From an uncultured Nitrospirota bacterium (lineage in GTDB: Bacteria > Nitrospirota > Nitrospiria > SBBL01 > SBBA01): a stretch of DNA of 29,691 nucleotides. The stretch covers positions 1-29,691 of the forward strand of contig CAZSME010000001.1 of the NCBI GenBank assembly GCA_964607665.1. The letters are read 5' to 3'. The notes under the pieces are model-generated. The model was not told where the DNA came from. It did not search any database and saw only the letters and a list, made by a program, of their open reading frames with translations. Within the stretch, counting starts at the first letter, position 1; the number at the start of each line of letters is the position of its first letter. Position numbers and translations under genes: made by a program. Of this stretch, positions 69 to 19,488 are shown piece by piece.

Positions 69-371
69 ATGATTCCACTTTCATACTACGTTGTCGCCTC
101 CACGCTGATGTTTCTGATCGGCCTGGTGGGCGTTTTGGTGCGGCGTAACTTTTTAATTATTCTCTACTCGATTGAATTGATGCTGAATGCCGCGAATATC
201 AATTTGGTCGCCTTCTCGCACTACTTGGAGTCGCTCGTTGGCCAGATTCTTTCTCTATTCGTCATTACAATCGCGGCGGGAGAGGCGGCCATTGGCCTGG
301 CGATTATCGTTGTCCTGTTCCGAAGACGGGCCACCACCAACGTGGATGAACTCGACTTACTCAAATGGTAG
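69..371 (+). CDS. nuoK: NADH-quinone oxidoreductase subunit K
   Basis: 100 aa with 3 hydrophobic segments; NuoK motifs RRN...SIELMLNAANINLVAF and AAGEAAIGLAI; C-terminus NVDELDLLKW. Confidence 0.97.
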   Translation: MIPLSYYVVASTLMFLIGLVGVLVRRNFLIILYSIELMLNAANINLVAFSHYLESLVGQILSLFVITIAAGEAAIGLAIIVVLFRRRATTNVDELDLLKW

Positions 372-1903
372 AACTCGTTTCGATCTTACCGCTCATCGCC
401 CTGCTGATCCCGCTGACTGCGGCAGGACTGATTCTTTTATCGGATAAACGTCCGAATCTCCGAGAGACCTGGTCGATTGTCGCCGGCATCGTTCAGCTTC
501 TGGTTGTGCTTTCGATGGGGCCCGCGATTTTCGCCGGTGAGACAATCGTCTACCCCCTTTACACATTCCTGTTCGGCCTGACAATGAAGCTTCGGGTCGA
601 CGCATTGGGCTTTATGTTTGCCGCGATTGCCTCGTTCCTGTGGATCGTAACGTCGCTCTATTCGATCGGCTATATGCGGGGAAACCACGAGCAACACCAA
701 ACCCGTTACTTCACCTGTTTCGCGCTGGCCCTGTGCTCCACCCTGGGCGTCGCCTTCTCCGCAAATTTGCTGACGCTGTACCTCTTCTATGAAATTCTCT
801 CGCTGATCACCGTTCCGCTGGTCGGACACAAAGAAACGGCCGAGTCTTCCGCGGGTGCGTCGAAATATCTGATCTATCTGGCCGGCACCTCCAAGACCGC
901 GCTTTTGGCGGCGATTGTACTGACATACAGCGTCGCGGGCACGTTAGACTTTGCGGCCAATGGCCTGTTTTCTGGCCTGGAAACCGGACAGGGCCGGATG
1001 AGTTCCGGCATGCTCACGCTCATTTATATCCTCTTTTTAGCCGGATTTGCGAAAGCGGCCATCATGCCGTTACACAGTTGGCTGCCTGCCGCAATGGTCG
1101 CGCCGACACCGGTTTCCGCGCTGTTGCACGCAGTAGCGGTCGTAAAGGTCGGCGTCTTTTGTGTGCTGCGGGTGATCTTACATGTGATCGGTGTTGATCT
1201 GATGGAGGCATTAGACCTGGGGGCTCCGACCGCGTTCTTTGCCTCGTTCACCATCCTGATGGCCTCGATCTATGCCCTCACGCGAGACAATCTCAAGGCG
1301 CGACTGGCCTATTCGACGATCAGCCAGCTCTCGTATGTTATTTTAGGCGGCGCGCTGCTTTCCCCCAGCGGAATCATGGGCGGTATTGTTCATATCGCCG
1401 CGCACGCCTTTTCCAAAATCACCCTCTTCTTCTGCGCCGGATCGATCTATGTGGCAACACACAAAACCAATATCAGCGAGCTTTCCGGCATCGGCCGCAA
1501 AATGCCCTGGACAATGACCGCGTTTACCCTCGGCGCGTTTGGGATGATTGGCGTACCGCCTCTGGCCGGTTTTTTGTCCAAATGGTATCTTGCTGTCGGG
1601 GCGATCGAAGCGCACTCGATCCCGATTCTGATTATTCTACTGGTCAGCACCCTGTTAAATGCCGCCTATTTTATCCCGGTCATCTATAAGGCCTTTTTCG
1701 AGACACCAACCGAGGAGCACGCAACGAGTTGGATTGGAGCGCCTCACCCACAGAGTCTGGGCGCGCACGCGGCGCACGATCCTTCTGATATTAAAGAAAC
1801 CCCGTTCATCGTGGTGCCGTTAACGATAACGGCCATCGGATCGATTTTAATCGGTCTTTTCCCGTATTACGTTCTTGAACTTGCCGAAAAGGTGATCTCA
1901 TAA
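365..1903 (+). CDS. MrpD-like proton-conducting membrane transporter (complex I antiporter-like subunit, MrpD1)
   Basis: 512 aa polytopic protein with LFYEIL (TM5 Glu), GFAKAAIMPLHSWLPAAMVAPTPVSALLHAVAVVKVG, LAYSTISQLSY and GFLSKWYL. No NuoL transverse-helix tail. Overlaps the nuoK stop by 7 nt. Confidence 0.9.
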   Translation: MVELVSILPLIALLIPLTAAGLILLSDKRPNLRETWSIVAGIVQLLVVLSMGPAIFAGETIVYPLYTFLFGLTMKLRVDALGFMFAAIASFLWIVTSLYSIGYMRGNHEQHQTRYFTCFALALCSTLGVAFSANLLTLYLFYEILSLITVPLVGHKETAESSAGASKYLIYLAGTSKTALLAAIVLTYSVAGTLDFAANGLFSGLETGQGRMSSGMLTLIYILFLAGFAKAAIMPLHSWLPAAMVAPTPVSALLHAVAVVKVGVFCVLRVILHVIGVDLMEALDLGAPTAFFASFTILMASIYALTRDNLKARLAYSTISQLSYVILGGALLSPSGIMGGIVHIAAHAFSKITLFFCAGSIYVATHKTNISELSGIGRKMPWTMTAFTLGAFGMIGVPPLAGFLSKWYLAVGAIEAHSIPILIILLVSTLLNAAYFIPVIYKAFFETPTEEHATSWIGAPHPQSLGAHAAHDPSDIKETPFIVVPLTITAIGSILIGLFPYYVLELAEKVIS

Positions 1904-3759
1904 TGGAGTGGTTACATCCATCCGTCTTGTTTTTCCTGGGTGCCGTGCTTCTGCCGTTTGTAAAAGAACGGCAGAGGGGCATCGTGTTAATCGGCGCGCC
2001 GACATTGGCGTTTCTCTCCCTGCTGGTTGTTCCGGAAGGGGATTACGGTCAGATCACGCTGATGGATATGTCGTTGACCTTCGGCCGGGTGGACCGGCTC
2101 AGCCTTCTGTTTGGATATATCTTCACGCTGATTGCGATGATCGGGATGGTCTATTCCCTTCATGTCAAAAAGGTCGCCGAGCATATCGCGGCGCTGCTTT
2201 ACGCGGGATCGGCGTTAGGCGCAGTTTTTTCGGGCGATCTGATTACCCTCTTTCTTTTCTGGGAGGGGATGGCCTTCACCTCCGCGCTTCTGATCTTTTT
2301 GGGCGGGAACAACGCGGCCGCGTTTCGTTACCTGCTGGTCCATATCTTCGGCGGGGTCTGCCTGTTGGGCGGTATCGTGATTCATCTGGCCGCGGGAAAC
2401 GATCCGACCTTCTCGTCTTTTACCGATCTCGGATTTCACGCCGGACAAATGCCGCTTGGCGCCACATTGATCTTAATCGGATTTATCGTGAACGCCGCGG
2501 TTCCACCGATTCACGCGTGGCTTTCCGATGCCTATCCCGAGGCCAGCGTAACCGGGATTGTTTTTTTAAGCGCGTTTACGACGAAAACCGCGGTGTATGT
2601 CCTCGCCCGTGGATTTGCCGGGTTTACACCGTTAGCCTGGCTGGGGGCGGCAATGACCCTTTATGGAGTGCTTTATGCGATGCTGGAAAACGATATCCGA
2701 AGACTGCTGGCCTATCATATTATCAGTCAGGTGGGTTTTATGGTCGCGGGGGTTGGGATTGGCACCGAGATGGCGATCAACGGCGCGGTGGCCCATGCCT
2801 TTGCCCATATTCTTTACAAAGCCCTGCTGATGATGGGAATGAGCTCGGTCCTTTTTATGACCGGAAAAAGAAAGGCCACGGAGCTGGGCGGCCTTTATAA
2901 AGCGATGCCGTTGACCTTCTTCCTTTACATGGTAGGTGGGTTCTCGATTTCCGGTGTCCCGTTTTTGAACGGCTTTATCAGTAAATCGATGACCATTTCC
3001 GCCGCCGCCGAGGCCCATATGATCCCAATTTTTCTGATGATGATGATCGCCTCCTGCGGCACCTTTCTCTCGACGACGCTCAAGTTGCCGTATGCGGTTT
3101 TTTTAGCGGAACGGAAAGGAGAGACCCTAACAGCAACCGACCCCCCTAAAAACATGATCGTCGGAATGGGACTCGCGGCGTCACTTTGTCTGCTGATCGG
3201 CATTGTTCCGAGCCTGCTTTATAATATTCTCCCTCATCCGGTTGATTACCATCCTTACACCGCCGAACATCTTGTCGGCGCGCTTTTGATGCTTTCATTG
3301 ACCGGTGTCGGGTTCTTTCTTTTTCTCAAAACGCTGTCGCCGCACGAAACGATCAGCCTCGATACCGATTGGATCTATCGAAAGGGGGGGGCGTTTTTTC
3401 TTCGTCTGGCGCAGGGGCCGATTTCGGTGTATGAGGCCTTTGTCACTGAATTTTATCGGAACGGGATCATTCGTCCGATGAAGCGGTTTGTTGCCGCATG
3501 TGGGCGTTTTGATCTTTACATCATCGATGGCGCGGTAAACGGCGTGGGGGATGGCGCCTTCGGCGGGGGACGCCTTTCAAACCTGTTTGAGAAATATGTG
3601 GTCTACGGATTCATTAACATGACGGGGTATGCCAATCACCTGGGGGCCAAGCTCTTTCGACGCCTTCAAACCGGCTCGGTCCACAACTACGCGATTATAA
3701 TTATTATTGGCATTTTTTTACTGGTGAATATTTATTTTATTTTCCGAAACCGGCTGTGA
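1903..3759 (+). CDS. MrpD/NuoL hybrid antiporter-like subunit with extended C-terminal transverse helix (MrpD2)
   Basis: 618 aa; FLFWEGM, NAAVPPIHAWLSDAYPEA, RRLLAYHIISQVG, GFISKSM core of the Na+/H+ antiporter subunit D type, plus a NuoL-type tail (FDLYIIDGAVNGVG...RRLQTGSVHNY and a final TM helix). TAATG coupling to the upstream gene. Confidence 0.9.
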   Translation: MEWLHPSVLFFLGAVLLPFVKERQRGIVLIGAPTLAFLSLLVVPEGDYGQITLMDMSLTFGRVDRLSLLFGYIFTLIAMIGMVYSLHVKKVAEHIAALLYAGSALGAVFSGDLITLFLFWEGMAFTSALLIFLGGNNAAAFRYLLVHIFGGVCLLGGIVIHLAAGNDPTFSSFTDLGFHAGQMPLGATLILIGFIVNAAVPPIHAWLSDAYPEASVTGIVFLSAFTTKTAVYVLARGFAGFTPLAWLGAAMTLYGVLYAMLENDIRRLLAYHIISQVGFMVAGVGIGTEMAINGAVAHAFAHILYKALLMMGMSSVLFMTGKRKATELGGLYKAMPLTFFLYMVGGFSISGVPFLNGFISKSMTISAAAEAHMIPIFLMMMIASCGTFLSTTLKLPYAVFLAERKGETLTATDPPKNMIVGMGLAASLCLLIGIVPSLLYNILPHPVDYHPYTAEHLVGALLMLSLTGVGFFLFLKTLSPHETISLDTDWIYRKGGAFFLRLAQGPISVYEAFVTEFYRNGIIRPMKRFVAACGRFDLYIIDGAVNGVGDGAFGGGRLSNLFEKYVVYGFINMTGYANHLGAKLFRRLQTGSVHNYAIIIIIGIFLLVNIYFIFRNRL

Positions 3760-3769
3760 GGCTTCTACC

Positions 3770-3847
3770 GTCATTCCGGCAATGTTTAAGCCGGAATCCA
3801 GAATCTTCAGAAAGGCTGGATTCCGGACAGAGGCATTCCGGAATGAC
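3770..3847. repeat. Family A palindromic repeat (GTCATTCCGG...CCGGAATGAC), full-length copy
   Basis: GTCATTCCGGC-N8-GCCGGAATCCAG...CTGGATTCCGG...CCGGAATGAC; nested inverted repeats with related copies at 9278 and 29420. Confidence 0.9.
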
Positions 3848-3909
3848 AGCAAGAAAAGAACTTTTTATTAAAGTGTAAATGAGTCAACGCAAACTATGTG
3901 AAGAGACCC

Positions 3910-4176
3910 ATGCCGACAATTTCGATGTTTTACGGTATAGTCGTTCGGATCTATTTTGCACCGGGTGAACATAATCCGCCGCATTTCCATGTTTACTACA
4001 ACGAGTACAAGGCGTCAGTGGATATTCGGACATGTGAAATCATAGAAGGCAATCTGCCCCGCAGGCAACAGAAGCTGGTCTTGGCCTGGGCAGAACTTCA
4101 TCAGGAGGAGCTGATGGCAGATTGGAACCTGGTAATGAATGGGGAGAACCCATTCGCGATTCAACCGCTTCAGTAA
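3910..4176 (+). CDS. DUF4160 domain protein (predicted TA-like component)
   Basis: MPTISMFYGIVVRIYF...EHNPPHFHVYY...GNLPRRQQKLVLAWAELHQEELMADW...PFAIQPL is the typical DUF4160 pattern. ATG 3910 is preferred over GTG 3898 because the family typically begins MP.IS.FYGI. Confidence 0.9.
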   Translation: MPTISMFYGIVVRIYFAPGEHNPPHFHVYYNEYKASVDIRTCEIIEGNLPRRQQKLVLAWAELHQEELMADWNLVMNGENPFAIQPLQ

Positions 4177-4188
4177 GGAGGAATAAAA

Positions 4189-4437
4189 ATGCACCCATCC
4201 GTAGTAAAGGTTGTTCCCAACGAAGACTTTACACTTTCAATGGTGTTCAGTAATGGCGAGGAGGGCCTTCTTAACATGAAGCCCTATCTTGATTTTGGGG
4301 TGTTTCAAAAGATTAAGGCATATGGATATTTTAAGCAGGTTCACGTTGCCTTTGACACCATTCAATGGGATTGTGGTGTTGATCTTGATCCGGAGTTTGT
4401 ATACGACAAATGCGAGAAGACCACACATGCAGGGTAA
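4189..4437 (+). CDS. DUF2442 domain protein (partner of DUF4160)
   Basis: V.KV.P..DF.L...FSNGEEG..NMKPYL..GVFQ...F.QV.VAFDTIQW..GVDLDPE..Y; strong SD AAGGAGG upstream. Confidence 0.9.
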   Translation: MHPSVVKVVPNEDFTLSMVFSNGEEGLLNMKPYLDFGVFQKIKAYGYFKQVHVAFDTIQWDCGVDLDPEFVYDKCEKTTHAG

Positions 4438-4445
4438 AGCTAAAA

Positions 4446-4480
4446 GCTCCCCCTTACTGAAGAAGGGGTTAGGGGTGGTT
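4446..4480. repeat. Family B C-run/G-run palindromic repeat
   Basis: CTCCCCCTTACTGAAGAAGGGGTTAGGGGTGGTT, similar to the copies at 6108-6232. Confidence 0.7.
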
Positions 4481-4512
4481 TGGAAGGACAAGTCAGGATA
4501 ACAAAATAAAAC

Positions 4513-6102
4513 ATGCTAACCACGCTGGGTGAAATTTTTACGATGCATCAGATCGGATTTCCGATCCTGACGCTGATTGTCTTTTTGCCGATCCTCACCG
4601 CGCTTTATCTTTCCCGTCTCAAAGATGAGGGGGAGATGCGGATCTTCGCGGCCTCCGCAACGCTGCTCACCTTCCTCATTTCGTTACTGCTTCCGATCTT
4701 TTTTCAACGCGGCATCGCCGATACGCAGTTTGTCGAACGGCTCCCCTGGATCCCCACCCTGGGCGCCTCGTACCATCTCGGCGTCGATGGGATCAGCCTC
4801 CTGCTGGTCAACCTGACTACTTTTCTTTCGTTTCTCGTCGTTGTGTTTTCATGGGAGGGAATCGCGCATTCGTTCAAACAATATCTGATCTGCCTGCTCG
4901 CCCTCGAAACCACGATGCTGGGTGTTTTTGTCTCACTTGACCTGCTGCTTTTCTTTCTGTTCTGGGAGATCATGCTGATTCCGATGTATTTCCTGATCAA
5001 AGTCTGGGGGGGGGAACGGCGCGATTACGCCTCATTGAAATTTGTCCTCTATACCCTTCTGGGATCGGTGCTGATGCTGATCGGCTTTGTCATCCTCTAT
5101 CTAAACTACCATGAATTCGCAATGCAAAACGCCCTTCCCAGAAAATATTCGTTTGACCTGCTCGACCTTCTGAAAGCGCCAATAACACCGGGCAAGCAAA
5201 TCGGGGTGTTCCTACTCCTTTTCTTCGGATTTGCGTTTAAAGTGCCGATGTTCCCGTTTCATACCTGGCTTCCCGATGCCCATGTTGAGGCGCCAACAGC
5301 CGGATCGGTGCTGCTCGCCGGCGTCTTGCTGAAGATGGGAACATACGGCTTTGTCCGTTTTTCTCTGCCGTTGCTGCCGCAGGCATCACAGGCACTCGCC
5401 CCGTTGATGCTGATGCTAGCGGTGATTGGGATTGTCTATGGCGCGTTGCTGGCGCTGGCCCAGAACGATATGAAAAAGCTGATTGCTTATTCGTCCATCA
5501 GCCATTTGGGATTTGTCATCCTCGGCATTTTCACGTTAAACAAAACGGGGATTTCCGGCGGAATGATCCAGATGATCAATCATGGGATTTCGACCTCCGG
5601 ACTCTTTTTGGTAGTCGGATTTCTTTATAACCGATGTCACACGAAGCTCATTGCCAAATTCGGCGGCCTGGCCAAGCCGGTTCCGATCCTGGCCGGTTTC
5701 TATCTCTTGATCTCTCTTTCATCATTGGCCTTCCCCGGCACAAACGGATTTGTCGGAGAGCTGCTCATTCTATTGGGCGCCGCGGAAAACCACCTGCCGT
5801 ATCTGATCCCCGCTATTTTTGGCGTGCTTTTGGGGGCCGCTTACCTGTTCTGGCTTTATCAACGGGTGATGTTGGGAGAGGTCACGGAAGAAAATGCGAC
5901 GCTGATTGATCTGAACCGCCGAGAGATTGGGATTTGTGCCGCGTTGACTGCCGTCATTCTCTGGGTCGGGATTTATCCGACCCCCTTTGTACGGATAACA
6001 GACGGATCCGTCGGCTATCTCATCTCACGAATGGAAGCCGGCCCGTTGGAAGAGGCGGCGCCGCTGTTGGTAAAAAACGATGGGACAGGAAAAGGTCAAT
6101 GA
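4513..6102 (+). CDS. nuoM: NADH-quinone oxidoreductase subunit M (copy 1, canonical)
   Basis: YHLGVDGISL, FFLFWEIMLIPMYFLI..WGG, FAFKVPMFPFHTWLPDAHVEAPTAGSVLLAGVLLKMGTYG, GFVGELLIL. The start may instead be ATG 4543. Confidence 0.95.
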   Translation: MLTTLGEIFTMHQIGFPILTLIVFLPILTALYLSRLKDEGEMRIFAASATLLTFLISLLLPIFFQRGIADTQFVERLPWIPTLGASYHLGVDGISLLLVNLTTFLSFLVVVFSWEGIAHSFKQYLICLLALETTMLGVFVSLDLLLFFLFWEIMLIPMYFLIKVWGGERRDYASLKFVLYTLLGSVLMLIGFVILYLNYHEFAMQNALPRKYSFDLLDLLKAPITPGKQIGVFLLLFFGFAFKVPMFPFHTWLPDAHVEAPTAGSVLLAGVLLKMGTYGFVRFSLPLLPQASQALAPLMLMLAVIGIVYGALLALAQNDMKKLIAYSSISHLGFVILGIFTLNKTGISGGMIQMINHGISTSGLFLVVGFLYNRCHTKLIAKFGGLAKPVPILAGFYLLISLSSLAFPGTNGFVGELLILLGAAENHLPYLIPAIFGVLLGAAYLFWLYQRVMLGEVTEENATLIDLNRREIGICAALTAVILWVGIYPTPFVRITDGSVGYLISRMEAGPLEEAAPLLVKNDGTGKGQ

Positions 6103-6107
6103 GTACT

Positions 6108-6232
6108 AACCCCCTTAATCCCCCTTTGAAAAAGGGGGAGATAAGGCAAAAGAACCCTCCATTAAAAACTCCCTTTTTTCTAAAGGGACCGGCATTCATT
6201 CCCCCCTTTTCTAAAGGGGGGCTAGGGGGGTT
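6108..6232. repeat. Family B repeat cluster: inverted pair plus a partial internal copy
   Basis: 6108-6140 (AACCCCCTTAATCCCCCTTTGAAAAAGGGGGAG) is approximately the reverse complement of 6199-6232 (TTCCCCCCTTTTCTAAAGGGGGGCTAGGGGGGTT); partial copy at about 6169-6187. Confidence 0.88.
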
Positions 6233-6256
6233 AAAGAAGAAGCACGATCGGCCACA

Positions 6257-7843
6257 ATGACTGAACATCTTTTATCGATCATTCTTTTCGCGCCCTTTGC
6301 CGGGGCCATCCTCCTGTTCTTTGTCGGCAATGACCGCCCCAACATCATCAAGGCGATTACGACTTTTTTCGGGGGCGTCTCGCTTGCCGGCGCCGTTTCA
6401 CTGCTCTACCTCTTCGACTACAACCAGAACAACTTCCAGTTTATTGAACGATGGCCGTGGTCGGACACGTTGGGCATCTCGTTTTATATTGGGGTGGATG
6501 GAGTCGGCGCGCCGATGGTTCTGGCCTCTTCGCTGCTGATGTTTGCCGGCATCTTTGTCTCCTGGCATGTTCAGGACCGGCTTCGTGAATTTTATATCAA
6601 TCTGCTGGTTTTAGGCTCCGCGACGATGGGGGTCTATATGTCGCTCGATCTTTTCTTCCTGTTCTTTTTCTACGAGCTTTCGGTCATTCCGATGTATCTT
6701 TTTATCGCGATCTGGGGACGGCACACCAAGGGGTATCTCGATATGCAGGGAAATCCCACGCGCGACTCCGTCGGCTTTATCTTCAACTTTAATCACAGCA
6801 GCAAAGAGTACGCGGCGATGAAGCTGACGCTTTATATTTCGGCCGGCGCGGTCGCAGCCCTGCTGGGGATTCTGCTGATCTACACCCACTCGGGGCTTCA
6901 GACATTTGATCTTTTAGCCATTATGGAAAAGGGGACGCTTTCGACCGGCATGAAAGAGGTCTGTTTTCTGCTGATCTTTTTGGGTTTCGCGCCAATTGCG
7001 GCGATCTGGCCGTTTCACTCCTGGTCTCCGGTCGGTTATGCCGCCGCGCCCGCAGCCGCCAGCATGATGCACGCAGGGGTATTAAAGAAGCTGGGCCATT
7101 TTTCGATCATTCGAATCGGGTTCACCCTTTTTCCTGAAGCAACGGCCAAATGGATGCCGGTGATTGCCATCCTCTGTATCCTCAATATCGTTTACGGGGG
7201 ACTCGTGGCCTTTTTGCAAAAAGACACCAAGTTTGTGATCGGCTATTCCAGTGTCGCGCACATGGGGTATATCTTTTTGGGGATGGCCTCGCTCAACCTC
7301 ATCAGTCTTACCGGCGCCGTCTTTTTTCTCTTTGCCGACGCGATGGCGATGGGTCTGCTCTTCGCACTTGCCGGACATATTTATTATCAAACCCACACGC
7401 TGGATATCCCTTCGATGGGAGGCCTCGCGCGGAAGATGCCTTTTATTGCGTCGCTTTTTGTGATTGGCTCTGCCGCCTCGTTTGGTCTTCCCGGCGGCAT
7501 GAATTTTATTGGGGAGCTGCTTGTCTTTGTCGGATCGTTTCGGGTCTATCCGGTTCAAACGGTGTTGGCCGCGATGGCGATCACGTTGACCTGGTCGTAT
7601 TATTTTCGCATGATTCGGTCGATCTTTTTTGGAGAGGCCGATCCGGCGATGGCCGATGTCGCGGACGCGACACGGTTCGTGCAGAAATTCCCGTTGATTT
7701 TACTCGCGGCGATGACCCTTTTCTTCGGCATTTTCCCCTCCCCCTTTATCCGGGTAATCCAGTCCGGCGTGATTCCGATCGTCGCAAAGATGGACGCCGG
7801 TTCCCCTCAACCGATAACCCTTATTGGATCAAACACGGAGTAG
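6257..7843 (+). CDS. nuoM: NADH-quinone oxidoreductase subunit M (copy 2, divergent)
   Basis: FYIGVDGVG, FFFYELSVIPMY..IAIWG, WPFHSWSPVGYAAAPAAASMMHAGVLKKLG, NFIGELLVF; 528 aa. Confidence 0.92.
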   Translation: MTEHLLSIILFAPFAGAILLFFVGNDRPNIIKAITTFFGGVSLAGAVSLLYLFDYNQNNFQFIERWPWSDTLGISFYIGVDGVGAPMVLASSLLMFAGIFVSWHVQDRLREFYINLLVLGSATMGVYMSLDLFFLFFFYELSVIPMYLFIAIWGRHTKGYLDMQGNPTRDSVGFIFNFNHSSKEYAAMKLTLYISAGAVAALLGILLIYTHSGLQTFDLLAIMEKGTLSTGMKEVCFLLIFLGFAPIAAIWPFHSWSPVGYAAAPAAASMMHAGVLKKLGHFSIIRIGFTLFPEATAKWMPVIAILCILNIVYGGLVAFLQKDTKFVIGYSSVAHMGYIFLGMASLNLISLTGAVFFLFADAMAMGLLFALAGHIYYQTHTLDIPSMGGLARKMPFIASLFVIGSAASFGLPGGMNFIGELLVFVGSFRVYPVQTVLAAMAITLTWSYYFRMIRSIFFGEADPAMADVADATRFVQKFPLILLAAMTLFFGIFPSPFIRVIQSGVIPIVAKMDAGSPQPITLIGSNTE

Positions 7844-7853: not shown

Positions 7854-7966
7854 AACTCTGAATTATTGTTTTTAAAGAATCGATCTGGTGTGTCATTGTA
7901 GGCGGTCTGTCGAGACCTCATCGATAAGTGTACCGCTTCTTTCGTTGGTTGAAGCGCCAAGCCCGT

Positions 7967-7995
7967 TTGACATACCCTGTAAGATAGGGTATATC
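7967..7995 (+). promoter_or_regulatory. Putative promoter and autoregulatory operator of the higBA-like module
   Basis: TTGACA at 7967-7972; perfect inverted repeat ATACCCT-N7-AGGGTAT at 7972-7992. The -10 is imperfect (TATATC at 17 bp spacing). Confidence 0.65.
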
Positions 7996-8006
7996 CATAA
8001 TATGGC

Positions 8007-8288
8007 ATGTGGCGCATCGAAGAACACCGCCGAGTAGACAAGCAGGTTGCGACCATTCCGAAGGATATTCTCAAGCGATATGAAAAATGGAAGGACATCG
8101 CCAAAATATCCGGTCCGCTTGGGCTTCGTCTTATTCGAGGATTGAATGACGAAGCGCTTCTCGGTGAATGGCGCGGCTATCGCTCATCTCGGCTTGGGCT
8201 TCAGTGGCGTGTTATTTATCGCATCGTTGCTGAAAAACGGCTGTTCCAAATCGCTTCGATAACCGCCCATGATTATCGGAGACCATAA
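8007..8288 (+). CDS. Type II toxin, RelE/HigB/YafQ-like mRNA interferase
   Basis: 93 aa, basic; DEAL.GEW.GYRSSRLGLQWRVIY pattern; directly upstream of an HTH gene. Confidence 0.85.
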   Translation: MWRIEEHRRVDKQVATIPKDILKRYEKWKDIAKISGPLGLRLIRGLNDEALLGEWRGYRSSRLGLQWRVIYRIVAEKRLFQIASITAHDYRRP

Positions 8289-8546
8289 ATGAAAGAGTAT
8301 CGTCCTGCAAAAAAGCGCATCGATGTTTCGGTGGGCGAATCCGTACGAATTCTGCGTGAGCTTCAAGAGCTAAGCCAAAGCCAACTCGCTCGCCGGACCG
8401 GTATTCCACAGGCGACCCTCTCGGCCATTGAGAATGATCGGGTTCGATTAGGTGTGGAACGGGCCAAAGTGCTTGCCAAGGCACTCAAATGCCATCCAGG
8501 GGTTCTTGTGTTTCCGGGTTGGGAACTTCCTAAAGCAGCGGCATAA
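8289..8546 (+). CDS. XRE-family HTH antitoxin (HigA-like)
   Basis: VGESVRILRELQELSQSQLARRTGIPQATLSAIENDR..LGVERAKVLAKAL is an HTH_3 pattern. Toxin-first order with a TAA-ATG junction. Confidence 0.88.
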   Translation: MKEYRPAKKRIDVSVGESVRILRELQELSQSQLARRTGIPQATLSAIENDRVRLGVERAKVLAKALKCHPGVLVFPGWELPKAAA

Positions 8547-8653: not shown

Positions 8654-8678
8654 CTTCCCCCGTTGGGAAAGGATGGGG
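8654..8678. repeat. Degenerate family B-like repeat
   Basis: CTTCCCCCGTTGGGAAAGGATGGGG resembles the 13767-13803 copy. Confidence 0.4.
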
Positions 8679-8707
8679 TCCACTTCAACTTAATTAAGGA
8701 GAGACGG

Positions 8708-9241
8708 ATGAAAATCTTTTTGTTGAGTGTCTTGATGTTGGGATTGACTGTGACCACCTACGCGCAACCGGTGAAGACCGAGCATGATCCATTAAAGCCG
8801 CGGGTCCCACCCGATGAGATTGCGAAGGCAAAAGCGATGAAACCACCGATTCCCGCGACGCCTGAAAATATCGCGGCTGGCAAAGCGCTCTTTACCGGAA
8901 AGGCCACCTGTTTTATCTGCCACGGAATGGAAGGAAAAGGAGACGGGCCATTGGTGATGACCGATCAAGTAACCATTAAGCCTCGCGATTTCACGAATCC
9001 AGCGTTTCACAAGGCAAAGACCTGCGGAGAAATGTTCTGGACCGCCTCCAATGGATCAAAAGGCGATTTTTCCAAGAAGGACGCTCCAAGCCATCCCAAA
9101 GGAACCGGTATGCGGGTTTATCTGATCGGCTCGAAAAATATATTGAAAATGCCGACCATCGACGTGACCCCAACCGTCACGGAGAAAGAGCTCTGGCAGA
9201 TCGTTTTATTTGAACGAAGCCTGGGCAAAGGCACCTGCTAG
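8708..9241 (+). CDS. Periplasmic monoheme cytochrome c
   Basis: Signal peptide MKIFLLSVLMLGLTVTTYA, heme motif CFICH, G.GDGP, PRDFT, and candidate axial Met in GTGM. SD AAGGAG precedes ATG 8708. Confidence 0.92.
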   Translation: MKIFLLSVLMLGLTVTTYAQPVKTEHDPLKPRVPPDEIAKAKAMKPPIPATPENIAAGKALFTGKATCFICHGMEGKGDGPLVMTDQVTIKPRDFTNPAFHKAKTCGEMFWTASNGSKGDFSKKDAPSHPKGTGMRVYLIGSKNILKMPTIDVTPTVTEKELWQIVLFERSLGKGTC

Positions 9242-9351: not shown

Positions 9352-10815
9352 ATGACCCGGTCTCTGCTCTCGGTACCCATCGTTCGATCCGTTCCCACAG
9401 GCTCTCTTTCTGCTACCGCACTCTTTTCCGCACTGAAAGCCCCCTTTCTTTTTGAAGGGATGCCCGGAGGCTGGTTCGACGGCCGCTATTCCGTCATCGG
9501 CCTTTCCCCGTTTGCCGTTTTTAAAAGCGAGGACAAAGTCGCCTCGTTTGAATTTGCAATCAGCCCCGATCGAAAACGGAAAGAGGTTTACCATACCCGC
9601 GATCCCCTTGCTGTTCTACAACGCTGTCTCAATCGGTTCCGCTCCGTCCCTCTCCCTACGGGGCAACACCCTTCCCTTCCATTCGCACAAGGCGGAGCGG
9701 TCGGTTTTATTAGCTACGGATTGATCCGACAGTACGAACCGGTACCACCCCATCCAGAGGAAGATGACTCCCTGGCCGACATCCACCTCCTGTTTGTAAA
9801 CGGCGCTGTTCTCTTTGATCAGGCCCAACAGACCATTCAAATCGTTTATGATCCGGCCTTGTTGACCGCAGTAGGATGGAAAGAGGAAGAGGCCAATCAA
9901 GAAGGATACCGAAAAATCGATGCCTTGGAGAAAACGATTGCGACGATACAAAACCCGGTCACGCACGGGTTTCAGATTTCCGAGATAAAAAATAGGCTTT
10001 CGAAAGAAGACTATGTCGCAATGGTAAGACGGGCAAAGGAATATATCGCGGCGGGTGATATCTTTCAGGCCAATCTTTCGCATCGTTTTAATGCGACATT
10101 TGAAGGGCCCTCTATTTTCCCGCTCTATCAGCGTCTGCGCGCGATCAATCCGTCGCCGTTTTCCGCCTATCTCAACATCGGTCCTCTGGAAATCGCCAGC
10201 GGATCACCTGAACGATTGGTCCGTGTAAGAACAACAGACGGAGAGCGAATTGTGGATACCCGGCCGATTGCCGGAACCTGTCCCCGTGGGAAGACAGAGG
10301 AAGAAGACACCAAGCGAATTGCGGCCATGTACGGAAGCGAAAAGGAACGCGCCGAACATCTCATGCTGGTGGATCTGGAACGAAACGACTTGGGAAAAGT
10401 CGCGCGGTACGGCAGCGTCAAGGTGGACGGGCTAATGACCTTAGAGCGATACTCCCATCTCTCCCACCTCGTCTCCAACATAACGGGAACGCTGCGAAAC
10501 GGGGTCTCCGAAACCGACGTCCTGCGTGCCCTTTTCCCCGGCGGTACGATTACCGGTGTTCCCAAGGTGCGTTGCATGCAAATTATCGCCGAGCTGGAAG
10601 CCCAGGCCCGCGGCCTTTACACCGGCTCGCTCGGCTATATCGACTTTTCCGGAGAACTTGATTTTAATATCATCATACGAACCTTTATCCGGCGAAAAAA
10701 CGAACTCTCGTTTCAGGTCGGCGCCGGTATTGTGGCCGATTCCGATCCGGAAATGGAATATCAGGAAACGCTTCAAAAGGCCGCGGCGTTAATCCGCGCG
10801 CTGGACGCCTCCTAA
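9352..10815 (+). CDS. pabB: Aminodeoxychorismate synthase component I (anthranilate synthase component I family)
   Basis: AGDIFQANLS, NPSPFSAYL, SGSPERLV, TRPIAGT.PRG, KERAEHLMLVDLERNDLGKV, FPGGTITGVPK, YTGSLG, FNIIIRT, GAGIVADS; adjacent to pabC. Alternative GTG start at 9316. Confidence 0.88.
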   Translation: MTRSLLSVPIVRSVPTGSLSATALFSALKAPFLFEGMPGGWFDGRYSVIGLSPFAVFKSEDKVASFEFAISPDRKRKEVYHTRDPLAVLQRCLNRFRSVPLPTGQHPSLPFAQGGAVGFISYGLIRQYEPVPPHPEEDDSLADIHLLFVNGAVLFDQAQQTIQIVYDPALLTAVGWKEEEANQEGYRKIDALEKTIATIQNPVTHGFQISEIKNRLSKEDYVAMVRRAKEYIAAGDIFQANLSHRFNATFEGPSIFPLYQRLRAINPSPFSAYLNIGPLEIASGSPERLVRVRTTDGERIVDTRPIAGTCPRGKTEEEDTKRIAAMYGSEKERAEHLMLVDLERNDLGKVARYGSVKVDGLMTLERYSHLSHLVSNITGTLRNGVSETDVLRALFPGGTITGVPKVRCMQIIAELEAQARGLYTGSLGYIDFSGELDFNIIIRTFIRRKNELSFQVGAGIVADSDPEMEYQETLQKAAALIRALDAS

Positions 10816-11681
10816 TGTGGGTCTATCTTCAAGATCGTTTTGTCTCGGAAGAAAAAGCGGTCGTCTCGGTCTTCGATCGCGGCTTTCTTTATGGCGATGG
10901 GCTGTTTGAAACCGTCCGCGCTTACAAAGGTAAAATAGCGCTGTTGCCCCAGCATCTGCAACGACTCACCCACGCGGCCAACCGAATCGCCCTTCCGATT
11001 CCACCGTCTGATCAATTAGAAGCGCTGCTTTACGAGACGTTAAACCGTAACCGTCTTCGTGATACCCTGCTTCGCCTGACGATCACAAGGGGGGTACCCC
11101 AACCGATCGATCCCTTTCGCAAAGGGCAAGGGGGAAAGGCCCCGGGCCTCCCGATTCACCCCACGCTTGTTATTTTTCCGCGGCCCTGTGACTATTCCAA
11201 TATGTTGTACAAAAAGGGGGTGATTGGCCAGATCGTCACGATTCAGCGTAATGCGAAAGGGGCGCAGGACCCGGCATTCAAGTCGATTAGTTTCTTGAAC
11301 AATGTTCTCGCAAGGCAGGAGGCGGCCTCCGCGTTTGAAGCGATTCTGTTAAACCACGATGGCTATCTCGCCGAAGGGAGTATCAGCAATCTCTTTTGGG
11401 TTCGAGATGGAAGACTCTATACCCCGGACCTATCGGTTGGGATTTTAGCCGGAACCCGGCGTGCCCTTGTGATCGAATTAGCAAAGGAAAATAAAATAGA
11501 AGTACAGGAGGGCTGTTATCGCATCGGGGACTTCTTCCATGCGGACGAGGCGTTTTTAACCAATACCGGTTTTGAGCTGATGCCGTTGATACAGGTGAAT
11601 GAACGAAAGATCGGGCCCGGCCACCCGGGGCTGATCACTCGGCGGCTGCATGATGCCTTTAAGAGACGGATCAAACAATAG
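10815..11681 (+). CDS. pabC: Aminodeoxychorismate lyase / class IV PLP aminotransferase
   Basis: DRGFLYGDGLFET, HLQRL, LRLTITRG, catalytic Lys in AFKSISFLNN, EGSISNLF, DEAFLTNT. TAATG coupling to pabB. Confidence 0.85.
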   Translation: MWVYLQDRFVSEEKAVVSVFDRGFLYGDGLFETVRAYKGKIALLPQHLQRLTHAANRIALPIPPSDQLEALLYETLNRNRLRDTLLRLTITRGVPQPIDPFRKGQGGKAPGLPIHPTLVIFPRPCDYSNMLYKKGVIGQIVTIQRNAKGAQDPAFKSISFLNNVLARQEAASAFEAILLNHDGYLAEGSISNLFWVRDGRLYTPDLSVGILAGTRRALVIELAKENKIEVQEGCYRIGDFFHADEAFLTNTGFELMPLIQVNERKIGPGHPGLITRRLHDAFKRRIKQ

Positions 11682-12969
11682 GCGAGACCTTTTCCGTTTC
11701 CTTCTCGACCTTCACCTTGCTCACGCGGTGGCCGTCCATATCCACGACAGTAAATTTGTATTCCCCGTGACGGACAATCTCGCCCGGTTTGGGAAGGGCC
11801 TGCATCTGGGCCAGGACAAACCCGCCAATCGTCTCATAATCGGGCGATTCGGGCAGATGAAGATCATAATCGCTAATTAACTCTCGAATTGCAAACGACG
11901 CGTCCACCACCCAGGAACCGTCTCGCAATCGTTCCACCGGCCGCTCCTCAACATCCGACTCATCGTGGATTTCGCCTACGATCTCTTCCACCAAATCTTC
12001 CATTGTGACTAACCCGTCGACCAGGCCATATTCGTTGACCACAATTGCCATCTGCGCGCGCCGGCGTTGAAACTCCTTTAGAAGATGACTCACCTGCATC
12101 GTTTCGGGCACAAAATAGGCCGACGTTAAAAGCTCACTTAACACAAACGGTTTTTTCCCCGTCAATGTGGTGAGAAGGTCTTTAAATAACAAAATGCCGA
12201 CAATCTCATTGAGGTTATTTTTATAGACCGGATATCGGGAGAACTTATTTTCCTGAAGATAGGCCATGACCTCCTCGCGGGGGGTATCGATTTGAATCGC
12301 ATGAATCTTGGGTCGAGGGATCATCACCTCCTTCACCGAAATGTCGTTGAATTCAAACACCGATCGAATCAGCTCCTGTTCTGTTTGGTCAAACACCCCC
12401 TCTTTTTGGCCCTCTTTCAGCAGCCATTTAATTTCTTCCTCCGAGGCGAAACTTCTCGGTACGATCTTCCCTCCAAACGGTTTCATAAAAAAGAGTACGG
12501 TAACGGTAAGAAAGTTCACCGCGGGTCGAAGCGTTTGCGACAAAAGATAAAACGGTTTGGCCGCGACCAGCGCGATCGGACCGGGATATTTAAGGGCAAG
12601 GGCTTTCGGAACCAGTTCGCCTAAGACAAGCGACAGGTAAGAGATCACACAAACAACAATGGTCAGGGCAATCGCTCGACTAAACGTGCCGATATACGGA
12701 ATCCCTTCCACCCAGGGGCGAATCAACTCCACCGCGCTCGCGCCGCCGACGGCCGCGGCGGCCGAACCAAATAAGGTCACGCCAATCTGTATTGTGGAGA
12801 GAAACCGCTCCGGATCGTTTTGGAGTTGTTGTAAGAGCGAGACGCTCTGTTTCCCTTCTTCGGAAAGAGGCGTGATATTGCTTTGCCGGGCCGTAATCAC
12901 GGCCATTTCAGCGCATGAGAAGAACCCATTTGCCAAAATCAAAAGAAGGATAAGAACGATTTCAAACAT
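11671..12969 (-). CDS. Hemolysin-family CNNM (DUF21)-CBS-CorC/HlyC protein
   Basis: NGFFSCAEMA, TIQIGVT, LGELVPKALA, VKEVMIPR, FSRYPVY, VVNEYG..DGLVTMEDLVEEIVGEI.DE, YETIGGF. Confidence 0.95.
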   Translation of the reverse strand: MFEIVLILLLILANGFFSCAEMAVITARQSNITPLSEEGKQSVSLLQQLQNDPERFLSTIQIGVTLFGSAAAAVGGASAVELIRPWVEGIPYIGTFSRAIALTIVVCVISYLSLVLGELVPKALALKYPGPIALVAAKPFYLLSQTLRPAVNFLTVTVLFFMKPFGGKIVPRSFASEEEIKWLLKEGQKEGVFDQTEQELIRSVFEFNDISVKEVMIPRPKIHAIQIDTPREEVMAYLQENKFSRYPVYKNNLNEIVGILLFKDLLTTLTGKKPFVLSELLTSAYFVPETMQVSHLLKEFQRRRAQMAIVVNEYGLVDGLVTMEDLVEEIVGEIHDESDVEERPVERLRDGSWVVDASFAIRELISDYDLHLPESPDYETIGGFVLAQMQALPKPGEIVRHGEYKFTVVDMDGHRVSKVKVEKETEKVSPIV

Positions 12970-12987
12970 CAGAAACCTTCCGCCCCA

Positions 12988-13016
12988 ATGGTATCACACC
13001 CCCATTTTATTGGCAA
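12988..13016 (-). promoter_or_regulatory. Sigma70-type promoter of the CNNM gene
   Basis: Minus strand TTGCCA-N17-TACCAT with an extended TGn before the -10. Confidence 0.55.
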
Positions 13017-13041
13017 TTTCAAAGGGGCAGCCGGTGTGAAG

Positions 13042-13740
13042 TTAGGCCGCGGCAAACTGCGCCTTATGGTTTGTATAATGTTTTCCCATCACCGAGTTGG
13101 CGTCGAGCACTTCGGTCAGCTTTTGGACCACACCCTCCCATTTTTCCGCCGGAATGGCGACATACATTTCATGATCGGGGAGGCCGGTGAATGTCCGGTT
13201 CCCTTTGCAACCCAACGAAATGGCGGTCTGTCCGTTTCCCATCGTCAGCGGTAAGATCGCACAGGCCGGACGGCCCAACGCATTCGTCAGCGCGTTGCCC
13301 GCCCCGGCCTTGATCACCGATTCGTACACCAGCATCGCCTGCGCCGGATTTGCAGCGATCAACACAAGATCCGGATTGAAACCGGCCTGATCCACCGGGC
13401 CATAGGCCACAACAGCGGGGGAGGTCTTCAAGGTGGGAATACCCGGCACTTCCGACATCGCAACATAGTTGTTCTCTGTCATAAACCCAATCGTATCGTT
13501 CAATTCATGCGCGCGCTCTTGTGATAAGGGAATGTTGTGGGTGTAGCTTCCGACGGCGCAGTTGAAATGATCGGAGGGAACAGTATAGAAGGTTTGCCCG
13601 CTCATCGCCTTCTGCCAGAAGACACAACCGGCCGGTACGGCATCCCCGTTCCATTGGGGAACACCTGCCGGAGGTGATGCCAAAAATCCAATCGCGATCG
13701 GTGTCTTACTTAATCCAAGCATTTCCTTAATGTTTTTCAT
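13042..13740 (-). CDS. DUF169 family protein
   Basis: LGL...PIAIGF, CVFWQKA..G, FNCAVG, RPACA, SLGCKGNR...L...EMYVAIP. Start is 13740 or 13755. Confidence 0.8.
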   Translation of the reverse strand: MKNIKEMLGLSKTPIAIGFLASPPAGVPQWNGDAVPAGCVFWQKAMSGQTFYTVPSDHFNCAVGSYTHNIPLSQERAHELNDTIGFMTENNYVAMSEVPGIPTLKTSPAVVAYGPVDQAGFNPDLVLIAANPAQAMLVYESVIKAGAGNALTNALGRPACAILPLTMGNGQTAISLGCKGNRTFTGLPDHEMYVAIPAEKWEGVVQKLTEVLDANSVMGKHYTNHKAQFAAA

Positions 13741-13766
13741 CTTATACCTTTTCACCTTTTCTTCTC

Positions 13767-13803
13767 TCCTCTCCCCCCGTGGGAGAGGGCCAGAGTAAGG
13801 GGG
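13767..13803. repeat. Family B-like repeat (CTCTCCCC..GGGAGAG + G-rich tail)
   Basis: TCCTCTCCCCCCGTGGGAGAGGGCCAGAGTAAGGGGG in the 5' leader of the DUF169 gene. Confidence 0.7.
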
Positions 13804-13826
13804 ATCGCCTCTGTATTCGATTGCGC

Positions 13827-13855
13827 ACTATATCACATCATCAGGCGGAGTTCGA
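13827..13855 (-). promoter_or_regulatory. Extended -10 promoter of the DUF169 gene
   Basis: Minus strand TGA-TATAGT (-10 at 13827-13832); weak -35 TCGAAC at 17 bp. Confidence 0.45.
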
Positions 13856-13885
13856 GATGAATCAGCATGCAGCCACCGCGGGCGC

Positions 13886-14380: not shown

Positions 14381-14434
14381 CGGACTATCCCTTTCAAAAT
14401 CGCCGGTCTATCCTGGTACTATCTCCGCACTAAA

Positions 14435-14465
14435 CCTCCCCCGCCCAGGGGAGGACCGAAGTGGG
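14435..14465. repeat. Family B-like hairpin downstream of tRNA-Glu
   Basis: CCTCCCC-CGCCCA-GGGGAGG followed by ACCGAAGTGGG; may also act as a processing or termination hairpin. Confidence 0.5.
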
Positions 14466-14470
14466 CGATC

Positions 14471-14545
14471 TGGTCCCAACGGGATTCGAACCCGTGTTTA
14501 TGCCTTGAGAGGGCACCGTCCTAGGCCGGGCTAGACGATGGGACC
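14471..14545 (-). tRNA. tRNA-Glu (anticodon CUC)
   Basis: Reverse complement GGTCCCA...GTGCC-CTCTCAA-GGCAT...ACGGG-TTCGAAT-CCCGT-TGGGACC-A forms a full cloverleaf; CCA not encoded. Confidence 0.97.
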
Positions 14546-14550
14546 CGCCC

Positions 14551-14941: not shown

Positions 14942-15054
14942 GGTCAGACTCTAAGCCGCAACCGGCGGCAGCGAACGAACCGCTCCCGCTGGTCGCGGTG
15001 AAAAGATAATCCCCACTTCTCTCCCTTCAATCACCCGCACAGACTCTAATTAAA

Positions 15055-17663: not shown

Positions 17664-17691
17664 GATCTACTCGGCAAATTGGCAGGGGCCC

Positions 17692-19475: not shown

Positions 19476-19488
19476 GATAAAGAGATGC

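Follow-up and report, generated by a model that had tools for sequence, protein, structure and literature searches.

The window, which is the whole stretch of DNA analysed here, is one entire contig of 29,691 bp, and the genes nuoK, D1, D2, M1, and M2 close to its start probably encode the distal membrane arm (NuoK, D1, D2, NuoM, and NuoM') of a hybrid, Complex_I_3-type complex I that works in reverse. Canonical complex I has three antiporter-like subunits (L, M, and N) and translocates 4 H+/2e-. In the window, profile searches confirm the four antiporter-like subunits that an initial annotation had placed after nuoK, namely the products of two MrpD-annotated genes and two distinct NuoM. The design has already been described in manganese-oxidising Nitrospirota, and the window is a new, fragmented example of it and not a new machine. 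A five-pump, MrpD-containing variant, which the initial annotation had mentioned as a possible precedent, is indeed published for Ca. Manganitrophaceae and carries the same 26-aa insertion in D2 (PMC9040806).

Gene layout and subunit identity

An ORF check recovers all five genes at the positions first assigned to them (Table 1). The 68 nt that precede nuoK correspond to the nuoJ-nuoK spacer of the relatives. The proposed translational coupling of nuoK, D1, and D2 is borne out by overlapping start and stop codons at both junctions, with an overlap of 7 nt (ATGGTAG) between K and D1 and of 1 nt (TAATG) between D1 and D2. D2 and M1 are separated by 753 nt that hold two inserted genes, and M1 and M2 by 154 nt. 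The profile matches of the five genes are far beyond chance and exceed the curated cut-offs. Scans of the spacers for promoters, terminators, and inverted repeats gave consensus-level matches only, with nothing decisive on operon structure.

Table 1. Positions of the membrane-arm genes and inserted cassettes in the window
Feature	Positions	Strand	Length	Basis
nuoK	69..371	+	100 aa	Pfam PF00420 and NCBIfam NuoK equivalog
D1, antiporter-like subunit, annotated 'MrpD family'	365..1903	+	512 aa	NF006236, PF00662, PF00361
D2, antiporter-like subunit, annotated 'Na+/H+ antiporter subunit D'	1903..3759	+	618 aa	NF009310
Insertion in D2 lateral helix, residues 551-576, GAFGGGRLSNLFEKYVVYGFINMTGY	3553..3630	+	26 aa	Alignment of 32 D2 homologues
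Inserted cassette, DUF4160 (3898-4176) and DUF2442 (4189-4437)	3898..4437	+		PF13711, PF10387
M1, canonical NuoM	4513..6102	+	529 aa	TIGR01972
M2, divergent 'extra' NuoM of 2M type	6257..7843	+	528 aa	TIGR01972, tree
RelE-like toxin (8007-8288) and HTH_3 antitoxin-like gene (8289-8546)	8007..8546	+		TIGR02385, PF01381

NuoK: The first gene matches Pfam Oxidored_q2 (PF00420) with an E value of 2e-29 and the NCBIfam NuoK equivalog NF004320 at 114 bits (cut-off 57), and the residues equivalent to the membrane glutamates E36 and E72 of E. coli are both kept. Its product is 87-89% identical to the NuoK of loci L001 and L002, and 77% identical to that of the Manganitrophus locus L005.

D1: The product of D1 scores 711 bits against NF006236 (cut-off 663) and has both the Proton_antipo_N (PF00662) and the Proton_antipo_M (PF00361) domain. 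The N-terminal domain is of the NuoL/MrpA type, the lateral helix is absent, and the best PDB sequence matches are NdhF (158 bits) and NuoL (135 bits). The residues E143, K230, K261, K351, and K406 are kept. In the NJ tree, the D1 clade has a bootstrap of 100, and its deep placement relative to NuoL, MrpA, and D2 reaches a bootstrap of just 38%.

D2: The product of D2 scores 691 bits against NF009310 (cut-off 564) and ends in a lateral helix followed by a TM anchor. In the AF2 model (pLDDT 86.8), helices span residues 489-552 and 556-588, and a TM helix spans residues 593-615, which gives about 97 helical residues ahead of the terminal anchor. The best Foldseek matches of the model are MrpA, NdhF, and NuoL, with the MrpA chains 7qru_A and 6z16_A at the top, and the best PDB sequence match is the P. 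furiosus MBS chain 6u8y_X. The 26-aa insertion looks like a tandem duplication of the helix unit before it and is helical in the model. Among the 32 aligned homologues, it is found in every two-NuoM locus and is missing from 15 of the 16 single-NuoM loci, L024 being the sole exception. The lysine of TM7 is replaced by Asn197 (nt 2491-2493), and asparagine occupies this position in all 32 homologues.

The initial annotation had described D1 and D2 as having MrpD-type cores, which the tree contradicts. Canonical MrpD from Priestia and Rhizobium groups with neither of them, and D2 groups with NuoL and MrpA (bootstrap 74), in line with its MrpA/NdhF/NuoL fold. Judged from the sequences, 'MrpD-like' is an annotation label for D1 and D2 and not a statement of phylogeny.

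M1 and M2: M1 scores 584 bits against the NuoM profile TIGR01972, keeps E152, K243, K274, and E416, and shares 54% identity with the first of the two NuoM in the 2M cluster of Ca. Nitrospira bockiana. M2 scores 414 bits against the same profile versus 117 bits against NuoN, and is 56% identical to the M' of Ca. N. bockiana. It has Ile247 (nt 6995-6997) in place of the TM7 lysine, a 26-aa insertion in the loop between TM5 and TM6 (residues 155-180, nt 6719-6796), and SPVGY in place of the LPDAH motif. The M2 proteins of Nitrospira and Manganitrophaceae share these substitutions, and M2 forms a clade with the second NuoM of Nitrospira (bootstrap 100). A truncation of M2 by deletion was considered and rejected, since the protein runs to its full C-terminus and the tails at this end differ among the relatives.

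These identities also bear on whether the region encodes a stand-alone Mrp-type cation/proton antiporter outside complex I. The public annotation of both D1 and D2 as 'Na+/H+ antiporter subunit D' speaks for such a transporter, but the first ORF is NuoK and not MrpC, nuoJ lies directly upstream of nuoK in six close relatives, mrpB, mrpE, mrpF, and mrpG are present neither in the window nor in the relatives, M1 and M2 are NuoM, and the tree separates canonical MrpD from D1 and D2. Together these results rule the antiporter out for practical purposes, leaving it with a negligible probability, and uphold the initial assignment to complex I.

Absence of nuoN and inserted cassettes

With 68 nt ahead of nuoK, the contig has neither nuoA-J nor an input module, and an exact search of public contigs for the D1 protein of the window gave no match. 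A tblastn search found no nuoJ remnant in the window, no remnant of nuoN anywhere in the 29.7-kb contig with two NuoN queries, and no remnants in the window of the genes that lie downstream of nuoN in L082. In the close relatives L002 and L082, the gene order is K-D1-D2-M1-M2-N and nuoN directly follows M2. The initial annotation had read the arrangement as one replacing NuoL-M-N; this does not hold for the family, in which the replacement concerns NuoL alone and relatives show the order K-D1-D2-M-M-N; the window differs in having no nuoN in cis.

Two small cassettes interrupt or border the cluster. The first one, between D2 and M1, consists of a DUF4160 gene (PF13711, E 3.5e-26) and a DUF2442 gene (PF10387, E 8.6e-14) and does not belong to the complex. 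It is missing from L002 and L082, where D2 and M1 abut, and the closest relative, L091, has another small gene (HicB-like) at the same site. The second one occupies the position of nuoN in the relatives and is where the nuo cluster of this contig stops. It pairs a RelE-like toxin, which scores 27.9 bits against TIGR02385 and so just equals the cut-off (27.9), with an HTH_3 gene (PF01381, E 1.7e-14). In this clade, the cluster is fragmented and broken up by small cassettes.

The same fragmentation could mean that J-K-D1-D2-M1-M2, cut off from nuoN and from nuoA-I, is a decaying or re-purposed fragment, which is no longer complex I or serves another redox partner. Besides the cassettes and the loss of nuoN in the window, nuoN is likewise missing after M2 in L088, the cluster of L003 and L086 is split into J-K-D1-D2-M1 and M2-N, and D1-D2 pairs occur without nuoK in L020, L028, L030, L038, L057, L059, and L075. 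On the other hand, the five genes are all full length with their key residues kept, K, D2, M1, and M2 have dN/dS values of 0.05-0.09, as expected under strong purifying selection, and nuoJ-nuoK precedes D1 in all close relatives. Moreover, dispersed nuo genes are normal in Nitrospira, whose 2M cluster lacks nuoE, nuoF, and nuoH and which has single nuo genes elsewhere in the genome (PMC6606698). Decay or re-purposing is therefore improbable.

Comparison with known complex I variants

Complex_I_3 of Ca. Manganitrophaceae: In this five-pump, MrpD-containing complex I, the MrpD-like pair of 'green complex I' substitutes for the NuoL of the Nitrospira '2M' complex I, and the second MrpD-like subunit has 26 aa inserted in its lateral helix (Yu et al. 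2022, PMC9040806). The window resembles it in having nuoK followed by two MrpD-annotated genes in the place of nuoL, the lateral-helix insertion in D2, and two NuoM paralogues of the Nitrospira 2M type. In contrast, the window has no nuoN after M2 and has small cassettes inserted in its cluster, and the closest relatives in its clade show nuoJ but not nuoA-I upstream of nuoK. It also lacks the membrane ORF of about 85 aa that usually separates D1 from D2, as in the Manganitrophaceae-labelled loci L004-L006. Complex_I_3 reportedly goes back to Yu and Leadbetter in 2020 as well as to the 2022 paper.

2M complex I of Nitrospira: This variant, presented in PMC6606698, is said to have been described by Chadwick and co-workers in 2018. 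Its M2 shares the TM7 lysine-to-isoleucine change and the TM5-TM6 loop insertion with the window, and the same role has been proposed for it. The cluster of Nitrospira bockiana has the order B-C-D-G-I-J-K-L-M-M'-N. Unlike the window with its D1 and D2, the 2M type has retained one NuoL, which is lengthened (666 aa in L083).

Green complex I of rhizobia: The 'green complex I' is attributed in PMC9040806 to Degli Esposti and Martinez-Romero 2016. In the cluster on a plasmid of Rhizobium sp. Pop5 (L085), a D1-D2 pair after nuoK replaces NuoL as in the window, and the window proteins are 55% (D1) and 51% (D2) identical to the rhizobial ones. The rhizobial cluster includes NuoEFG, one NuoM, and NuoN, with a small ORF separating D1 from D2 and without the lateral-helix insertion, whereas the window has two NuoM and the insertion and lacks the small ORF.

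Mrp antiporters and MBS: The antiporter-like fold is common to the window proteins, MrpA and MrpD, and the MBS of P. furiosus. However, the window lacks the MrpB, MrpC, MrpE, MrpF, and MrpG genes of Mrp (CPA3) systems as well as the MrpA C-terminal domain, and its identities to Priestia MrpA and MrpD are just 26-30%.

Proposed function

In the preferred reading, the D1-D2 pair of green complex I would take the place of NuoL in a 2M complex I of the Nitrospira type, and D2 would provide the lateral helix. The 26-residue duplication would lengthen this helix so that it could clamp one further antiporter-like subunit. With NuoN encoded elsewhere in the genome, the complex would have five antiporter-like subunits, and a Q-module of the NuoABCDGI type would also need to be encoded elsewhere. 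We infer that the products of nuoK, D1, D2, M1, and M2 assemble as one enzyme. Inward ion flow through the enlarged arm would then lift quinol electrons to the low potential of ferredoxin or NAD+ and so supply autotrophic growth; reverse electron transport driven by the proton-motive force would be the likely role of the complex. Reverse electron transport to ferredoxin has been hypothesised for both the 2M complex and Complex_I_3 (PMC6606698; PMC9040806), and it has also been hypothesised in print that the extra subunits would move more ions for each electron pair. Complex I with extra antiporter-like subunits is a leading candidate for the source of low-potential reductant for CO2 fixation in organisms that live on very weak donors such as Mn(II), Fe(II), and nitrite. 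To our knowledge, no such variant has yet been purified or had its structure determined.

The same enzyme could instead run mainly forward, passing electrons from ferredoxin or NADH to quinone at a high stoichiometry and saving more energy for each electron pair. In favour of this, the enzyme can in principle operate in either direction, heterotrophic Rhodobacteraceae and rhizobia commonly have D1-D2 complexes with four pumps, and two MAGs labelled Deltaproteobacteria (L019 and L037) have independent K-D1-D2-M-M-N clusters that include NuoE, NuoF, NuoG, and NuoH. However, the closest relatives of the window belong to the Nitrospirota and Manganitrophaceae, whose known members use high-potential donors and the rTCA cycle (PMC9040806). 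In addition, the clusters of the relatives have a Q-module of the NuoABCDGI type without NuoE, NuoF, and NuoH, and the lack of NuoE and NuoF is compatible with a partner other than NADH. A mainly forward direction is accordingly rather unlikely. Whatever the direction, the clusters in the Deltaproteobacteria-labelled MAGs indicate that the K-D1-D2-M-M-N design is not limited to one family.

For the reverse-running complex, the ion/2e- ratio would be expected to exceed the canonical 4, and this expectation is uncertain because neither D2 nor M2 has the lysine of TM7, which pairs with the TM5 glutamate in canonical pumps. With Asn197 in D2 and Ile247 in M2, the working channels may number fewer than five, and the absence of this lysine from two of the five subunits is a testable caveat to the assumed stoichiometry. 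All the D2 proteins and all the Nitrospirota-type M2 proteins examined are without it. A further reading, which is possible but doubtful, takes J-K-D1-D2-M-M' as a detachable 'distal pump cassette' apart from nuoN and the Q-module and, separately, counts only three canonical channels. If this is true, the cassette may combine with subunits from another complex I operon, D2 and M2 would be connecting or ion-conducting spacers, and the published estimate of 6 H+/2e- would be wrong.

Relatives and host

The window groups with L082 and L002 (bootstrap 76-99), and its nearest relatives are labelled just 'Nitrospirota bacterium'. The order A-B-C-D-G-I-J-K-D1-D2-M1-M2-N is found in L006-L009, L011, L013, L015, and L067, and with frameshifts in L005. 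The gene set is modular and is divided differently from locus to locus, with nuoN present, absent, or relocated.

A lithoautotrophic host, as the initial annotation had proposed, is plausible because of the Nitrospirota relatives and a nearby gene for a cytochrome-579-like cytochrome c; the suggested link to rTCA carbon fixation finds no rTCA gene in the window. That cytochrome c, which scores below its family cut-off, is also the only exception to a lack of metal-oxidation genes in the window.

The D1, D2, M1, and M2 proteins are 66, 66, 68, and 74% identical, respectively, to those of the Manganitrophaceae chromosome L006. The corresponding values between L006 and L007 are 69, 57, 69, and 71%, and L007 falls in a second clade that includes the Manganitrophaceae-labelled MAG L011. 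The identities of the window to its Manganitrophaceae-labelled relatives therefore equal the spread between the two clades bearing that label. The host probably belongs to a separate, poorly sampled Nitrospirota clade, to which the five-pump design is hereby extended, and its RelA reaches no more than 74% identity to the nearest homologue.

Composition of the Membrane-Arm Cluster

Five intact membrane-protein genes lie on the plus strand between positions 69 and 7843: nuoK, two antiporter-like genes (D1 and D2), and two NuoM genes (M1 and M2). In nuoK the two membrane glutamates of the E. coli protein are conserved. The nuoK stop and the D1 start overlap by 7 nt, and the D1 stop and the D2 start by 1 nt. 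A gap of 753 nt, occupied by a DUF4160/DUF2442 gene pair, separates D2 from M1, and M1 and M2 are 154 nt apart. Downstream of M2 are a RelE-like/HTH pair, a monoheme cytochrome c gene, pabB/pabC-like genes, and housekeeping genes. The family matches confirm the five genes named in the initial annotation, and its reading of them as two MrpD-like pumps and two NuoM replacing NuoL-M-N is supported in part, the set being a known design in a fragmented cluster.

Features of the window, with family matches in bits
Feature	Position (nt)	Strand	Remarks
nuoK	69-371	+	Pfam Oxidored_q2; NCBIfam NuoK equivalog above cut-off
D1	365-1903	+	512 aa; NF006236, 711 bits (curated NCBIfam equivalog cut-off 663 bits)
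D2	1903-3759	+	618 aa; NF009310, 691 bits (curated NCBIfam equivalog cut-off 564 bits)
M1	4513-6102	+	canonical NuoM; TIGR01972, 584 bits
M2	6257-7843	+	divergent NuoM; TIGR01972, 414 bits, vs NuoN model, 117 bits
Monoheme cytochrome c	8663-9241 (probable start ATG 8708)		signal peptide; single CFICH motif
Two ordinary housekeeping clusters	15055-23852	-	

Identity of D1 and D2

The models matched by D1 and D2 are both named 'antiporter subunit D', and 'MrpD' is an annotation name for these proteins. Among solved structures, the best sequence matches of D1 are NdhF (158 bits) and NuoL (135 bits), followed by MbhH (133 bits), with MrpA and MrpD much lower at 90-112 bits. D2 best matches the P. 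furiosus MBS antiporter-like long chain X (6u8y_X) and MrpA. For phylogeny, 97 antiporter-like proteins were placed in a neighbour-joining tree, among them E. coli NuoL/M/N, the L/M/M'/N set of Ca. Nitrospira bockiana, subunits of the rhizobial green complex, and bona fide MrpA and MrpD of Priestia and Rhizobium. The D1 clade and the D2 clade both have bootstrap 100; D2 joins NuoL and MrpA at bootstrap 74, and the deep placement of D1 has bootstrap 38. Canonical MrpD sits near NuoN, outside both clades, which, together with the identity of the first ORF as NuoK, refutes a stand-alone Mrp antiporter. The AlphaFold model of D2 (78 homologues, pLDDT 86.8) has an antiporter core followed by two long helices (489-552 and 556-588) and a terminal TM helix, and its best structural matches are the lateral-helix-bearing subunits MrpA, NdhF, and NuoL. 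From the sequence matches, the tree, and the D2 model, D1 resembles a NuoL-class core lacking the lateral helix, and D2 a NuoL/MrpA-class core that has it.

Comparison with Published Designs

The five-pump MrpD-containing variant that the initial annotation mentioned for Ca. Manganitrophus is indeed published: it is Complex_I_3 of Ca. Manganitrophaceae, described by Yu et al. 2022 (PMC9040806). In Complex_I_3, two MrpD-like subunits closest to rhizobial green complex I stand in place of NuoL, two NuoM and one NuoN are closest to the Nitrospira 2M complex I, which has an extra NuoM, and MrpD2 has a conserved 26-aa lateral-helix insertion (PMC9040806). D2 has a 26-aa insertion like that of MrpD2, and M2 groups with the extra NuoM of Nitrospira. 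In contrast to Complex_I_3, the window has no nuoN in cis and its operon is fragmented. The architecture is thus already published, though rare and biochemically uncharacterised, and the window is a further example of this known design in a fragmented arrangement. The lysine losses, the lost small ORF, the modular splitting, and the independent occurrence in MAGs labelled Deltaproteobacteria, all described below, are leads and not discoveries.

Lateral-Helix Insertion and Key Residues

The insertion in D2 occupies residues 551-576 of the lateral helix. It is present in every aligned two-NuoM locus and missing in 15 of the 16 aligned single-NuoM loci, the exception being L024. That locus (9613-16705, a Desulfuromonadales MAG) has a lengthened D2 lateral helix, yet its cluster holds a single NuoM before NuoN. 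The insertion resembles the preceding unit (D2 residues 536-587, nt 3508-3663: FDLYIIDGAVNGVG... vs FEKYVVYGFINMTG...), which suggests that a segment of the lateral helix was duplicated in tandem.

All key residues are retained in D1 and M1. In D2, the TM7 lysine position of NuoL is Asn, as in all 32 aligned D2 homologues, including four-pump forms. M2 has Ile at this position, a 26-aa insertion in the TM5-6 loop, and SPVGY replacing LPDAH, three features common to the extra NuoM of Nitrospira 2M. With the TM7 lysine missing in both D2 and M2, the usual assumption of 6 ions per 2e- is not secure.

Cluster Order in Relatives

A scan of species-representative genomes gave 80 loci encoding D1 relatives (L-numbers), whose ORFs were classed by BLAST against a reference set. 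The common order is K-D1-D2-M-N, with four pump-like subunits; it is seen in Desulfobacterales, Rhodobacteraceae, other Alphaproteobacteria, and Thermodesulfovibrionia, among others, and an annotated example on a rhizobial plasmid reads J-K-D1-(hypothetical)-D2-M-N-A-B-C-D-E-F-G. Manganitrophaceae and related Nitrospirota MAGs (L006-L009, L011, L013, L015, L067) have A-B-C-D-G-I-J-K-D1-D2-M1-M2-N, as does L005, with D2 and M1 frameshifted. The 2M cluster of Nitrospira bockiana is B-C-D-G-I-J-K-L(666 aa)-M-M'-N, in agreement with the reported lack of NuoE, F, and H in this 2M clade (PMC6606698).

The nearest relatives of the window form a clade of their own, in which the window, L082, and L002 group at bootstrap 76-99; the cluster in this clade begins at nuoJ and is preceded by unrelated genes. 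L002 and L082 have J-K-D1-D2-M1-M2-N, and L088 has J-K-D1-D2-M1-M2 without a following nuoN, as in the window, where neither nuoN nor a remnant of it was found anywhere. L003 ends after M1, and M2-N stands by itself on another contig of the Hainich H32 groundwater dataset to which L003 belongs. L091, with the closest D2 (80% identity), has a HicB-like gene (11099-11290) between D2 and M1. Since this variation recurs across the clade, the missing nuoN and the cassette insertions are traits of the lineage rather than artefacts of assembly. The rival view is that of a decaying or re-purposed fragment; dN/dS is 0.05-0.09 for nuoK, D2, M1, and M2, with dS saturated, and strong purifying selection acts on the cluster genes. 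The window is the complete contig, so the sequence upstream of nuoK is out of view.

Nearly all loci with a spacer between D1 and D2, the rhizobial example and L004-L006 among them, encode in it a conserved ORF of ~85 aa with two predicted TM spans and the C-terminus ...MKREDYYD (L085 10748-11002; L006 11518-11775; L019 2105-2347; ~60 other loci). This ORF is found neither in the window's clade nor in the L007-L015/L067 clade. The rhizobial record annotates it only as 'hypothetical'.

Two groundwater MAGs labelled Deltaproteobacteria, L019 (261-9365) and L037 (232-20045), have K-D1-D2-M-M-N, and L037 additionally has NuoE-F-G-H. In these MAGs both NuoM copies retain the TM7 lysine, and the 26-aa helix duplication in D2 is clearly tandem. 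The position of this D2 among four-pump D2s in the tree suggests an independent origin of the five-pump order outside Nitrospirota and a design shared by more than one family.

D1-D2 pairs with neither nuoK nor nuoJ occur in L020, L028, L030, L038, L057, L059, and L075, in some cases next to a third gene of D1 type, and certain D2 homologues carry fused MbhD/MbhE-type domains (P0197, P0209, P0226). These pairs and fusions indicate that D1-D2 also serves as a module of other complexes, perhaps among them the Manganitrophaceae 'TO_2' oxidase.

Host and Proposed Function

The closest proteins belong to uncultured Nitrospirota, with groundwater datasets as the source of several. The window's subunit identities to the Manganitrophaceae chromosome L006 (66-74%) are on a par with those between L006 and a second Manganitrophaceae-type clade (57-71%). 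With the nearest RelA homologue only 74% identical, the host would be a distinct lineage of genus rank or higher, within or beside Ca. Manganitrophaceae. In the cytochrome c 0.8 kb downstream of the nuo cluster, the N-terminal half scores 120 bits against the NCBIfam cytochrome 579 model, below the 280-bit cut-off. A comparable cytochrome 579 homologue, an outgroup there, is known in Ca. Manganitrophus noduliformans (PMC8126622). The gene fits a metal-oxidising lifestyle without proving one.

Judged from established complex I and Mrp structures, the D2 helix would run along the adjacent antiporter-like subunits. As an α-helix, the 26 extra residues would span ~39 Å, roughly the width of one subunit, and could make room for the extra NuoM. 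NuoN and the Q-module would be supplied from elsewhere in the genome, and quinone chemistry would then be coupled to a larger number of ion channels than canonical complex I has. In vivo, the enzyme probably runs backwards and spends proton-motive force on reducing a low-potential acceptor, a direction drawn from the biology of relatives and published hypotheses; the less likely rival is the same enzyme in forward operation. A non-NADH partner would fit the absence of NuoE/NuoF in related clusters.

Cassettes and Flanking Elements

The DUF4160/DUF2442 pair (3898-4437) has no counterpart in L002 and L082, and in L091, the closest relative, the HicB-like antitoxin gene takes up this spacer. Small toxin-antitoxin-like cassettes seem to have landed repeatedly at the D2-M1 junction. 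The RelE-like and HTH_3 genes, with their upstream signals (7966-8546), occupy the nuoN site of relatives. Ahead of the RelE-like gene are TTGACA, a 10-nt imperfect palindrome pair (7969-7978/7986-7995), and TATATC, which together look like a self-regulated promoter/operator. Three short hairpins of the form C5T3...A3G5 (e.g., CCCCCTTTGAAAAAGGGGG) lie in the M1-M2 spacer (6103-6256), and a similar G/C hairpin follows DUF2442 (4440-4475); they may be REP-like or RNA-processing/stabilising elements. Directly 3' of the D2 stop is a nested perfect palindrome (3770-3847: GTCATTCCGG...CCGGAATCCAG / CTGGATTCCGG...CCGGAATGAC) without a T-run. Of the two housekeeping clusters, one comprises ABC-2 transporter, ABC_transp_aux, and DUF4340 genes and the other a MoxR AAA ATPase, a DUF58 gene, and a TgpA-like transglutaminase.
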